From NCBI RefSeq assembly GCF_016026235.1, contig NZ_CP065613.1: 64,000 bases of DNA; one strand, written 5' to 3'. Origin of the DNA: Escherichia coli. GTDB lineage: Bacteria; Pseudomonadota; Gammaproteobacteria; Enterobacterales; Enterobacteriaceae. The notes beneath the pieces were generated by a model. It saw only the letters and a program-made list of their open reading frames with translations, did no database searches and had not been told where the DNA came from. Below, one piece after another: positions 8,775-12,264 of this stretch (positions are counted from its first letter, which is position 1; the number at the start of each line of letters is the position of its first letter). The position numbers and the translations under genes were made by a program.

Positions 8775-10817
8775 TTATTGCTGAATTTGATTGGATAGTA
8801 AGACCTGCAACATATCTTGTTGATGCTCAGCTATCTCATCTTCCAGCCAACGACCTTTATCTTTCATCAGCCGAATCATAGCAAGCAATTTAAGACTATC
8901 AGTCTGGTTATTGGCAAGGCTTGCTTCAAAGTGCTCCTGCTTCTGTTGCGGCTGGAAGTTACTCAAGCGCGAGTTCTTGCTGTGGCTGATAAGGCAAAGG
9001 TTGCCAAACGAATGGAGTGCACTCTGCTCAACCGGTTTATAGCCATCCATCGGATGCTGGGGTGAGAAGTGCTCCACCGAGCTGCGGAAAGTGAACTCAA
9101 AGGAGCCAGCAACTTTGTCGCTATTCCGATCTCGTACCCACAGCAGATAGTCGAGGAAGTTGAAGACAAAGTTGTTCTCGATATGACCGAAGCGAAGTTT
9201 GGATGTAATCACCTTGTGCCAACTCTCATCCACATTGATGGCGGGCAACAGGGCGTTATCAAGGTAGAGCATCTGGTAATAGGAAGCCCCTTCACCAGGC
9301 GCCAAAAAGCGCTGGAAGACAAAGCGGCGAGCCTGACTCTCCAGATAGGACAGATAAGCCCCGGCATCCACCGGTTGATCAGGGTGACAATTGTCGAACA
9401 GATATCTCAGTGCACCATTCAGCCAATGTTTGTAAACCAGGGTCGGGGTCGACACATGAAACGCCGACAGCAACATCAGGACCCGCCGGTTAACACCAGA
9501 GAAACCATTCTCATTTTCATCCTTGTCAAAGGTATTGATGTAACTGACGCTCTTTTCCGAATACCAGTGCAGCCGCTTCAGACTCCAACTATCCTTGCCA
9601 TCGGCAAACTCGCGCTTGATGATGAACTGATCAAACAGATACTTGCTCTTTAACAGGCCATAGATAAAACGCTGAACTGCCGCTACTGGATCCGGTTGCC
9701 TTATCACTCGCAGCTCAAACTGATCGACCAGTTGTTTATCATCAAGCGGCACCCCCTCCGTATCACCCGGGTCGCGGCTCACGAGTCGCAGCACATGGAG
9801 CAAGAAGTTGGAGAAGTTGATGACGCTGTTAAAGCGCTCGGAGCCTGCGCTCTCCTCCTCCACCGTCTGCTCACCATCAAGCTTGTCATCCTGCAAAATG
9901 GCCAACAAGGTGCGCCCTTGGCTACCGGCAGCTGCACGGCTTTTATCGGCAGCGTCGGCCGTGTTTGGGGATCCTAGCAGTTCAAGCAGATGGGCAAAAT
10001 CACGGGGCACAAACTGACCCCAGTCGCTCTCACCAAACAGACGGTGGCGCTCTTGCGGGGTAAAGCCGTACTGGATATAGCGCTCCATATTGGCGCAGGC
10101 ATCCCATACCCGAGTCAGGATATGAATACTTTGGCGACGATGCTCTTCCTCGGGTATCTGGTTCAGCGTCTCCATCAGCCGCGCCTTGATCACTTCATGC
10201 TTTTCCAACTGCTCGCCGCGATTGTTCATCGCCTCGAAGAAGTGATTGAGATCGGTATCCTTGGGTACTTCGATACGAGAGATCTGCACATGCTTGAAGA
10301 GGTAGTCGCAAAAGGCCGTCAGTTTAGCCCCTACCAAACCAAGATCCGCCATTGCCTTGCCAATCAGCTCAAAACCGTTCACCAAACCTTCATTGAAGGT
10401 ACTCCCCCGCAAATCGTAGGGGGCAACACCCTGCCATAAGCGCTCGAAGGTATGGCTCGATATCGGGCGACTCTCAAAAGCGAGGTTGATGGTCTGATAC
10501 CAGCTCATATCCACCGAATCTATCGCGTGATGTTTGAGCCAATTGGCCAGCAGAGAGAGGGTAGTAAAGCGCTGCTGGCCATCGATTACCTCGAAACTGC
10601 CATCGTCCCGGGCAAACACCACCAGGGTGCCGATATAGTAGGTTTGCGGCCCCTTACCACTGACCAATTTTTGCTGATAATCCAGCACATCCTGCAGCAG
10701 CTGGGTGATCTCTCCCTCACCCCAGGCATAGTTGCGCTGGTACATGGGCACCAGATAGCGGGCGCGATCTTCAAGCAGTGCACGAATGGAAAAGGGGCGA
10801 ACGCCTGCATCATTCAT
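8775..10817 (-). CDS. DUF262 + DUF1524 (GmrSD-family, His-Me finger nuclease) protein, 680 aa; putative type IV restriction endonuclease
   Basis: N-terminal '[19 protein letters not shown]' and '[11 protein letters not shown]'; C-terminal '[17 protein letters not shown]...[15 protein letters not shown]' consistent with DUF1524. Confidence 0.8.
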
Positions 10818-12264
10818 AATATTTCATCTCCCGAAACAGCCCGACCAGCTCATCTTCGGCACCATTGCGATTGTTCTTGTTCTCTCGACTGCTCATGCTA
10901 GGCAAAGGGAAGCCGTGCAGATCTCCCGGCAGACGAGCATCACGAATGGCACGGATCAGATTGTGCTCCAGCACATAGTTATCCATGGTTGCCAACTGCA
11001 CTACCTGCTGGCGGATGCGGCAGCGATAGGCCCAGATAAAGCACTTCTCGATGGCCAGTGACAGCCCTTGGCTGCCGAACTTGTCGATATAGAAGATCAG
11101 TGCGCAGTCGAACATGGCCCGCACATAACGATCCCCGGTGCGGTGGCGACGCTCGTAGCTGCCCAGGGTCGATAGCACCTTGCTGGCCATCGGTGTCAGC
11201 GTTTCGCCGAGCAGGGTGGCAGATTGCGCCTTGCCGGAATCAGACTCCTCGGCCACGATGGCGGCCACCCGCGTCTGGTAGTACTCGGCCATCTCGAAAA
11301 AGCGCCGACCATTGATGATCATCTGGTCGAGATGAAAGGGAAACGTCATGTACTGGCCGTCAATCTTGCGCTGGTACTGGCGGTTGTACTCATCGACAAA
11401 GTGGTGGGCGATGCGCAGCGACTCCACGTAAGGATAATGCCCTACCCGATCTAGGTTGACCCCCTTGAAGAGATCCACCTCCCCCTTGCCAAAGTAGCGG
11501 GCCGACTTGCCCTCGGCCCACTGGCGTACCCGATAGAGATAGAGGGCGAACAGATTGGCCAGCTCGTCGCTTGGCAGGCGCTCCCAATGGGCGACCGCCT
11601 CGGCCTTGAGATTGGCCTCATGACCGGCAAACTCGCGCAGGTGAAATGCCTTGAGCAGATCGTGAGGAGCCAGATCGCGCCCCCGGGCATTTTGCGAATC
11701 GAAGAACTGGAACGCCTCCGAGATATCCTGCAGTACAAAGCAGACCACCTGACAGCGGTTGAGCAGAAAGTCAATTTGCTGCTCGTCAAACTCAGGGCGG
11801 GCCACCAGCCGACGCAACTCCAGATAGTTGCGTCTGAGGTTGAACTCCGAATCCCGGCTGGGGAAGCGCTGGCGCTGCATAAACGCATCGATAGGTCCAC
11901 GCAAGACCTGCAATTGCTCACGCAGATCCTGACGTTGAAACCGGATACTCTTCTCTTTGCCACTGCGATTTTCGTTATCCAGCACCTCGATCAGCGCCTT
12001 GACGGTCAACATCAGGGTCAGGGTGCGTTGCTGACCATCGACGATATCAAGCATCTCGCCCTGCTCACTATCGGTGTGCTGATGAAACACCACCGAGCCC
12101 AGCCGGTAGGCGCTCTTGTCCTGATGGGTTGCCAAATCGGTAAAGAGATCCGAGATATTCTTGGAGCCCCAGCGGTAAGGTCGCTGATAGCTTGGGATGG
12201 CCAGTTGGGGAATGGCCAGCAACTGGCGTACCGACTGCACTTGATTATTAATGCTCTCCATCAT
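10810..12264 (-). CDS. DUF262 (ParB/GmrS-like NTPase) domain protein, 484 aa; upstream partner of a two-gene type IV restriction-like module
   Basis: '[12 protein letters not shown]' DGQQR motif and '[22 protein letters not shown]' typical of DUF262; overlaps the next gene's start (coupled). Confidence 0.8.

Follow-up and report, generated by a model that had tools for sequence, protein, structure and literature searches.

Two overlapping minus-strand genes, here called A and B, form a pair that we assign with a probability of about 80% to the TgvAB family, a branch of the type IV (modification-dependent) GmrSD restriction enzymes whose members consist of two proteins. The pair is most likely a restriction system that is made up of two proteins and depends on modification, as the earlier note on this DNA had proposed: domain content, gene order, gene overlap, reciprocal best matches, six essential residues and the list of the TgvAB authors all support this reading at the sequence level. 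TgvAB itself corresponds to VC1767/VC1766 of VPI-2 in Vibrio cholerae, where both proteins are needed and phages with glucosyl- and arabinosyl-hmC are restricted (Vizzarro et al. 2024, PMC11411939; Gomez & Waters 2024, 10.1101/2024.04.05.588314). The two-protein arrangement was published in 2024, and the present pair has already been catalogued by the TgvAB authors. Table S5, which comes from their HMM/MacSyFinder scan, counts among the TgvAB hits #101, from E. coli FORC31, and #49, from a plasmid of K. pneumoniae NJST258_1 (Vizzarro et al. 2024, PMC11411939). Along the stretch of about 400 residues compared, these proteins are near-identical to A and B. No new kind of system is thus represented by the pair.

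Organization of the gene pair

The window, i.e. the whole stretch of 64,000 nt of Escherichia coli DNA that was analysed, contains the following features in and around the pair:

20427 down to 12919, minus strand, upstream of A: type I R-M operon hsdM-hsdS-yecA-like-hsdR-M48 (annotation)
12286-12888, minus strand: IS3-family transposase C-terminus and IS1 remnants (RefSeq annotation of the identical locus)
12512-12888: IS1 remnant, part of the IS block 5' of A
12265..12277, minus strand: Shine-Dalgarno sequence AGGAGG and short native leader of A (sequence, limit of blastn homology)
10810-12264, minus strand: tgvA-like gene A, 484 aa when counted from its first ATG (ORF calling)
10810..10817, minus strand: A/B overlap ATGAATGA, 8 nt (read from the sequence)
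8775-10817, minus strand: tgvB-like gene B, 680 aa (ORF calling)
8651..8700, minus strand: candidate terminator-like hairpins in the B-hhe spacer (consensus scan, weak)

The two minus-strand ORFs have exactly the coordinates given in the earlier note, are adjacent and overlap by 8 nt. Inside the overlap ATGAATGA the start codon of B stands before the stop codon of A, which implies translational coupling. Both ORFs are intact and of full length, with all catalytic residues present. About 7,000 homologues were found for the genes and the AlphaFold (AF2) model of A reaches a pLDDT of 91.8; thus A and B are genuine genes and not chance ORFs. The true start of A is probably the second ATG at 12261, giving 483 aa, which is the start in the RefSeq annotation and agrees with the Vogesella orthologue. 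The description of the pair as GC-rich clearly applies to A (56.7% GC, GC3 72%) but only modestly to B (51.9% GC, GC3 62%), the values for comparison being 51% GC in the window core and 44% (GC3 ~40%) in the adjoining gene hhe.

Domain composition and similarity to TgvAB of Vibrio cholerae

According to Pfam, protein A has an N-terminal GmrSD_N/DUF262 ParB-like NTPase domain (E 4e-28) with the motifs QR (Q27 R28), DGQQR (residues 76-80) and FxxxN (F188..N192). In protein B, the GmrSD_N/DUF262 domain spans residues 12-215 (E 4.9e-29) and is joined by a helical middle region to a GmrSD_C/DUF1524 His-Me finger nuclease domain at residues 555-671 (E 5e-12). The DUF262 plus C-terminal DUF1524 architecture predicted for B was thus recovered, and the DGQQR motif expected in A is present there and likewise in B (residues 79-83), where QR and FxxxN (F194..N198) are found as well. 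However, the view that A consists of DUF262 only proved wrong: residues 220-465 form the strongly conserved helical domain DUF7834 (PF25202, E 2e-76), and Pfam detects no nuclease domain in this protein. The same two domains, GmrSD_N (6e-28) and DUF7834 (7e-38), make up V. cholerae TgvA. When the A-family and B-family profiles were compared with each other, the alignment was confined to the DUF262 domains, and therefore DUF7834 is not detectably copied from the middle region of B. A literature search on DUF7834 returned nothing.

The correspondence to TgvAB extends over both proteins. BLASTP of A against TgvA yielded E 4e-20 with two matches (79 and 35 bits), the second of them in the C-terminal domain, and B matched TgvB over its full length (E 7e-31, 115 bits, 722 columns), while the crosswise comparisons of A with TgvB (1e-13) and of B with TgvA (6e-14) involved DUF262 alone. 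A/TgvA and B/TgvB are reciprocal best matches, although at a low identity of 24-31%. Other Enterobacterales possess a TgvB orthologue that shares 65% identity with the one from V. cholerae, which indicates that the present pair represents a separate deep subfamily.

Mutation of six residues abolishes TgvAB defence, namely G94 and R97 in TgvA and G81, R84, H571 and N602 in TgvB. All six are kept, as G77/R80 in A and as G80/R83/H583/N615 in B. G77/R80 of A and G80/R83 of B are invariant in the family alignments, and among the His-Me finger residues of B (H583, N606, N615 and N620) the first three are invariant across 21 homologues.

The gene order in V. cholerae is hsdM-hsdS-tgvA-tgvB-hsdR, with tgvA at 6596-8008 and tgvB at 8001-9992 of the respective locus (L003), so that the overlap is also 8 nt. 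Common to both systems are the co-oriented A-then-B arrangement, the 8-nt overlap, the domain content and the essential residues. They differ in that the E. coli pair lies outside a type I operon, downstream of a complete one from which IS remnants separate it, and is followed by hhe; it is also found on plasmids and in a tRNA-Leu island of Enterobacteriaceae. In the window the pair is not placed between hsdS and hsdR, but its closer relatives are: the A homologues of V. parahaemolyticus and K. pneumoniae, with 64% identity, are located between these two genes. Such embedding is not obligatory, since merely 79 of the 1,341 pairs in the TgvAB survey were embedded in type I R-M loci (PMC11411939).

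Predicted structures

When the structure models of both proteins were searched with Foldseek, GmrSD-family structures were the only matches. The top matches were DndI, SspE and BrxU for A and SspE, DndI and BrxU (7p9k, significant) for B, whose AF2 model is of moderate confidence (pLDDT 71.5) and contains a strand-strand-helix arrangement at 579-635. A sequence search of the PDB found nothing for A and was limited to DUF262 matches for B. The best structural matches of both proteins are SspE/DndI (PDB 6jiv, 7drr, 9jfl), with which they have the DUF262 NTPase motifs in common, and SspE models were also among the PADLOC matches. These similarities would fit an SspE/DndI-like effector that senses phosphorothioate (PT)-modified host DNA and nicks or cuts unmodified incoming phage DNA. 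SspE and DndI are single proteins, encoded beside the ssp/dnd phosphorothioate modification genes. However, dnd or ssp genes were seen neither adjoining the pair in the annotation of the window nor in the Pfam lists of 11 related loci, and for this reason the SspE-like candidate was dropped. Moreover, the sequence similarity of SspE to the pair is restricted to DUF262, beyond which homology points to TgvA and TgvB, and small plasmids spread the pair with hhe only. We consider PT sensing hardly probable at all, and assignment to TgvAB is retained. Since the SspE/DndI folds are at least as close as that of BrxU, the sensed feature is not readable from structure.

Related loci and distribution

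Of 11 related loci that were compared, one ends at a contig edge, leaving 10 that could be assessed, with A homologues ranging from 90% down to 25% identity. B is GmrSD-like in architecture and fold. In all 10 loci an overlapping A gene directly precedes the gene with GmrSD_N and GmrSD_C. The overlap is 8 nt in nine of them and 14 nt in L012; for L011 and L013 a length of 8 nt was deduced from gene coordinates. Overlaps of the form ATGnnTGA/TAA are common to V. cholerae tgvAB and five other loci. Together with the published MacSyFinder survey (1,341 pairs), these 11 independent loci settle the co-occurrence of A and B. Such strict pairing, like the gene overlap, would fit a need for both proteins in defence.

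Among 5,426 E. coli genomes that are complete, 253 (about 5%) contain the pair. It also occurs on 371 plasmids, of which many come from clinical K. pneumoniae, and is abundant on K. pneumoniae ST258-type plasmids. Copies in E. coli and Klebsiella are 99.8-100% identical, which points to recent spread with little time for decay. In a blastn comparison with the Vogesella cassette, 85.4% identity was found, confined to positions 8803-12277 of the window, i.e. to the two genes. The A-then-B cassette is conserved and travels as a unit. Phage records contained no DNA match to the pair, and hence there is no sign of it being phage-borne.

The immediate neighbours raise the question of a larger unit, in which A and B would function only when accompanied by the Hhe helicase-nuclease or by the type I R-M system close by. 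The earlier note had placed the pair next to type I R-M, and this operon is indeed found directly upstream, in the same orientation; hhe, a defence gene, follows B directly after a spacer of 174 nt. All of these genes, hhe, B, A and the type I genes, are co-oriented, and the hhe-B-A block of E. coli chromosomes is 99.8% identical to that on plasmids of K. pneumoniae. In addition, V. cholerae tgvAB protects 10-100 fold better when all five genes of the type I cluster are expressed together. Nevertheless, V. cholerae tgvAB also protects alone, an HsdR nuclease mutant leaves the protection undiminished, and at the present locus IS remnants stand between the type I operon and the pair. With respect to hhe, its composition is far off (GC3 about 40% against 62-72% for the pair), all more distant loci with the pair are without it, the Vogesella DNA homology is limited to A and B, and in the window IS1 splits hhe at 4342-5109 while the pair is intact. 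A literature search on GmrSD with Hhe in Klebsiella found nothing. Because of its composition, its absence from the distant loci and its disruption by IS1, hhe was dropped as a third component, and dependence on either neighbour is, in our estimate, highly unlikely.

Upstream region and expression

The location between IS elements, which had been proposed for the pair, was found on the 5' side only, where the IS3-family and IS1 remnants lie; on the 3' side the pair is adjoined by hhe. The remnants have taken the place of the native upstream region of A, and so of any promoter it contained, the IS3-family remnant ending 13-25 nt before the start codon. They are outside the system proper but relevant to its expression. 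A consensus scan for promoters and terminators gave no more sites than shuffled sequence and no convincing promoter for A, the sole promoter-like match overlapping the start codon of A; the scan is therefore given no weight.

This arrangement suggests that the cassette could be intact but silent, the IS insertion having cut the promoter off and recent acquisition accounting for its retention. Such a reading is compatible with membership in the TgvAB family and concerns the activity in the present strain. The near-identity of the copies in E. coli and Klebsiella, an IS-rich strain background and the already inactivated hhe next to the pair would be in line with it. On the other hand, the ORFs and their catalytic residues have remained intact, and the same IS junction is found on K. 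pneumoniae plasmids and is retained in hundreds of genomes and plasmids. Furthermore, the pair may be expressed by read-through out of the type I operon or out of the insA remnant of IS1, which is co-oriented. Altogether, we judge a silent cassette to be unlikely and return to a TgvAB-type system that may be expressed from its present position.

Proposed mechanism and targets

We infer the restriction activity and the modification dependence of the pair from homology at about 25% identity, and the steps proposed here are carried over from experiments with TgvAB, GrwAB and BrxU. A and B would be made in coupled amounts and act jointly. Their ParB-like DUF262 domains would bind and hydrolyse NTP and help to sense hypermodified phage DNA, which would then be cleaved by the His-Me finger of B. 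A would be the obligatory partner devoid of nuclease, with a role as sensor, regulator or scaffold. Unmodified host DNA would be spared, so that no methylase partner should be required.

By analogy, the most likely targets would be T-even-like phages, whose genomes carry sugar-modified 5-hydroxymethylcytosine. It is also conceivable, though rather doubtful, that the recognition range of this subfamily differs from glucosyl- and arabinosyl-hmC, comprising either a different modification of DNA or a wider set; the nuclease-free protein A, with its DUF7834 domain, might then set the specificity.

The identification of the pair is useful for several reasons. The RefSeq product name of both proteins is merely "DUF262 domain-containing protein", NCBIfam gives zero matches for either, and PADLOC-DB 2.0.0 holds no full-length model, its best matches (HEC-06, Orf5 and SspE) spanning mainly DUF262. 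A probable type IV system thus stands unnamed in all the E. coli genomes (253) and plasmids (371) mentioned above, and the practical value of our assignment lies in annotation. Further, the pair could influence the susceptibility of carrier strains to T-even-like therapeutic phages. Last, it provides a second, very divergent TgvAB, and comparing the two could reveal the role of the nuclease-free partner and the determinant of modification specificity.

Relation to other known systems

Single-chain GmrSD enzymes such as Eco94GmrSD and BrxU, which are modification-dependent, NTP-regulated nucleases, have the DUF262 plus DUF1524 architecture in common with B. However, they work alone, whereas the TgvAB-type family has a second, presumably obligatory DUF262 protein. 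In E. coli CT596, DUF262 and DUF1524 are reportedly located on separate proteins, GmrS and GmrD. This split differs from the situation described here, in which a full enzyme has a further DUF262 protein at its side.

GrwAB of WASA-lineage V. cholerae is a two-protein GmrSD-like type IV system targeting hypermodified phages (PMC12137116). As in the present pair, both proteins contain DUF262, and GrwAB requires both of them (PMC12137116). Compared by description only, the gene order is reversed, with the nuclease-bearing GrwA first, and its partner, GrwB, ends in a long C-terminus composed of several unknown domains (PMC12137116), while A is a protein of 484 aa with GmrSD_N and DUF7834. The range of GrwAB is broader and includes 7-deazaguanine phages (PMC12137116).

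Finally, HEC-06 is the best match in PADLOC-DB 2.0.0 for both A (E 3e-30) and B (E 1e-33), with best-scoring alignments confined to roughly the first 100 residues. It is a candidate GmrSD-like family of about 560 aa found within Hma systems and does not show the two-gene A/B arrangement. The likeness is that in HEC-06, too, a DUF262 protein is housed inside another defence system.

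An overlapping gene pair with DUF262 domains

Two ORFs were expected on the minus strand from an earlier note on this DNA, and the six-frame ORF list and the translations matched both exactly:

10810-12264, minus strand: A, tgvA-like gene, 484 aa
8775-10817, minus strand: B, tgvB-like gene, 680 aa

Both genes are intact, and the ATG of B lies 8 nt ahead of the A stop (ATGAATGA), and the noted overlap thus measures 8 nt (window 10810-10817). The pair had also been described as GC-rich. This clearly applies to A (GC 56.7%, GC3 72%) when compared to the core part of the window (51%) and to the neighbouring gene hhe (44%), but only modestly to B (GC 51.9%, GC3 62%). 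Thus, A is clearly and B modestly foreign in composition.

The Pfam search recovered both domains proposed for B, GmrSD_N/DUF262 (residues 12-215, E 4.9e-29) and a C-terminal GmrSD_C/DUF1524 (residues 555-671, E 5e-12). In A, GmrSD_N was found at residues 21-208 (E 4e-28); the suggestion that A consists of DUF262 only was incomplete, however, since DUF7834 occupies its C-terminus (residues 220-465, E 2e-76). The DGQQR motif noticed in A (residues 76-80) is present in B as well (residues 79-83). In RefSeq each protein is named "DUF262 domain-containing protein" and nothing more, and NCBIfam holds no model for either. Their top matches in PADLOC-DB 2.0.0 were HEC-06, Orf5 and SspE, with mostly the DUF262 region covered.

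The AlphaFold2 model of A (pLDDT 91.8) had significant PDB fold matches to GmrSD-family proteins only, namely DndI (9jfl), SspE (6jiv/7drr) and, more weakly, BrxU (7p9k), and the alignments extend through the helical region after DUF262. SspE, DndI and BrxU were also the fold matches of B, the model of which (pLDDT 71.5) contains, around H583-N620, the strand-strand-helix element that a His-Me finger would be expected to have. PT sensing, as in SspE or DndI, is nevertheless an unlikely role, since neither dnd nor ssp genes turned up in the neighbourhood of the pair. Among solved structures, the best sequence match of B was PDB 20yv_A / 20yw_A, an 818 aa "DUF262 domain-containing protein" (E 3.5e-06, DUF262 region only).

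A and B belong to the TgvAB family

TgvAB of Vibrio cholerae (VC1767/VC1766) is encoded by a two-gene operon in the hsdS-hsdR interval of VPI-2. DUF262 is common to both proteins and TgvB additionally contains DUF1524; defence needs both, and phages with glucosyl- or arabinosyl-hmC are restricted (Vizzarro et al. 2024, PMC11411939; Gomez & Waters 2024). In the V. cholerae locus that we recovered (L003), tgvA (470 aa) encodes GmrSD_N and DUF7834, exactly as A does, and overlaps tgvB (663 aa) likewise by 8 nt (L003 8001-8008). Full-length BLASTP aligned A with TgvA (31% over 219 aa and 27% over 94 aa of the C-terminal domain, E 4e-20) and B with TgvB from end to end (24% over 722 columns, E 7e-31), while the crosswise matches, A with TgvB (E 1e-13) and B with TgvA (E 6e-14), covered DUF262 only. 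By this comparison the two relationships are reciprocal. In profile-profile comparison, too, only the DUF262 domains of the A and B families align.

According to the TgvAB literature, the mutants TgvA G94A/R97A and TgvB G81A/R84A/H571A/N602A were made; defence is lost with H571A and with N602A, and neither protein can do without its DUF262 domain. All six residues are kept (G77/R80 in A; G80/R83/H583/N615 in B) and do not vary among the 40 A-type and 21 B-type proteins that we aligned. The predicted NTPase motif sets of A and B and the predicted nuclease motif are conserved.

Moreover, MacSyFinder hits of the TgvAB model (Table S5, PMC11411939) include E. coli FORC31 AOT32537.1/AOT32538.1 (hit 101) and the K. 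pneumoniae NJST258_1 plasmid proteins AHM87929.1/AHM87930.1 (hit 49), which differ from A and B by few residues over the ~400 residues compared. Thus, the classification is already in the literature: the family's authors have catalogued A-B as TgvAB. Taken together, domains, residues, reciprocal BLASTP and Table S5 bear out the earlier reading of a TgvAB-type two-component type IV restriction system, and judged by sequence A-B is a distant member of this family, which was published in 2024. Our literature search found no experiment on the A-B subfamily. That its modification specificity differs from that of TgvAB seems rather improbable.

By homology, A and B would be made in coupled amounts and act jointly. 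Their ParB-like DUF262 domains may bind and hydrolyse NTP, thereby sensing hypermodified DNA and licensing cleavage; for BrxU, a dimer-monomer switch upon NTP binding has been proposed. The His-Me finger of B would then cut phage DNA, and a host methylase would not be needed.

TgvB orthologues with 63-65% identity to the V. cholerae protein were found in Escherichia fergusonii (P0215), Yersinia enterocolitica (P0216) and Serratia (P0220), and thus Enterobacterales harbour two TgvAB subfamilies that differ strongly from each other.

The two-gene cassette is the conserved unit

The A family comprises 428 clusters at 50% identity (cut-off E <= 1e-30). We sampled 11 independent loci with A homologues of 90% down to 25% identity, among them Vogesella, Aeromonas veronii, Burkholderia, V. 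parahaemolyticus, the K. pneumoniae chromosome, V. cholerae and metagenomic contigs. In 10 of the 11, A is followed by an overlapping gene for a GmrSD_N + GmrSD_C protein (overlap of 8 nt in nine loci and of 14 nt in the tenth); in the eleventh, too, A overlaps a gene downstream, but the contig stops too early for that gene to be identified. Co-occurrence of A and B is thus obligatory across the sampled loci. The start/stop overlap ATGnnTGA (or TAA) is kept in the window and in L003, L004, L005, L006, L008 and L009, related A-B loci whose proteins have diverged to ~25% identity, which suggests that translational coupling is under selection.

The V. parahaemolyticus and K. pneumoniae loci (64% identity to A) have the order hsdM-hsdS-A-B-hsdR-peptidase, the name-giving arrangement of TgvAB, and other loci adjoin CRISPR-Cas, BrxR or catabolic genes. 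DNA homology with the Vogesella locus (85.4%) is confined to window 8803-12277, i.e. A, B and the ribosome-binding site. By this alignment, the two-gene cassette is the unit, which hhe and the local type I system adjoin without belonging to it.

Distribution and island context

The window is chromosomal DNA of E. coli/Shigella type, and its island, which adjoins a tRNA Leu-Cys-Gly cluster (28547-28849), is 99.97-100% identical to that of E. coli FDAARGOS_943. All genes from hsdM through hhe lie on the minus strand, transcribed in the order hsdM, hsdS, a YecA-family gene, hsdR and an M48/YgjP-like peptidase gene (20427 down to 12919), followed by IS1 and IS3-family remnants (about 12888-12286), A, B, a 174-nt spacer and hhe. 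The predicted neighbouring type I R-M system is therefore present as an upstream hsdM-hsdR operon on the same strand, but the proposed location between IS elements holds for the 5' side only, the 3' neighbour being hhe.

The gene hhe is known as a single-gene defence system; its product is a DUF4011 helicase-nuclease (NCBIfam Hhe_antiphage, PADLOC Hhe). In the window (2076-8600) a complete IS1 of 768 bp (4342-5109), which has produced a 9-bp target duplication, interrupts the gene and leaves two ORFs, while it is unbroken in FDAARGOS_943 and on K. pneumoniae plasmids. The 3.7-kb segment (identity at least 99.8%) was found in 253 of 5,426 complete E. coli genomes and on 371 plasmids, mainly of K. 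pneumoniae (the NJST258_1 plasmid among them), where it takes the form of an hhe-B-A block without the type I system. Phage records contained no A-B pair. That A-B forms a three-part system together with either hhe or the type I R-M genes is unlikely in view of composition (44% GC in hhe vs 56.7% in A and 51.9% in B), of the IS1 in hhe, and of distribution: the plasmid copies do without the type I system, and hhe is absent from all other sampled A-B loci.

It is possible that A-B is silent in this strain: the upstream IS3-family remnant comes to within 13-25 nt of the A start codon, and our promoter scan found no credible promoter upstream of A. On the other hand, read-through from the co-oriented upstream genes could express the pair.

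Several further features of the island were observed. The YecA/UPF0149-family protein (227 aa, 17008-17691, minus strand) has a SEC-C metal-binding motif and matches PDC-S12, a defence candidate in PADLOC (E 1e-97); its gene takes the same "embedded" hsdS-hsdR slot that tgvAB occupies elsewhere. The peptidase gene (12919-13674, minus strand) overlaps the hsdR end, and the type I operons that embed A-B in V. parahaemolyticus and K. pneumoniae have this peptidase after hsdR, too. Compared to FDAARGOS_943, the window carries a 1.48-kb insertion (350-1827) with an IS110-family (RNA-guided) transposase (ORF 577-1773). Two ORFs of the plus strand (20731-21966, 411 aa; 22369-23499, 376 aa) lie in DNA that is very rich in AT (34-40% GC). 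They gave no match in NCBIfam or PADLOC and are uncharacterised island cargo adjoining a tyrosine recombinase gene (23643-24779). Together with a second recombinase gene (26287-27516), an IS1 (25051-25820) and the tRNA cluster, the latter marks the integration end (23643-28849) of the ~27-kb defence island.
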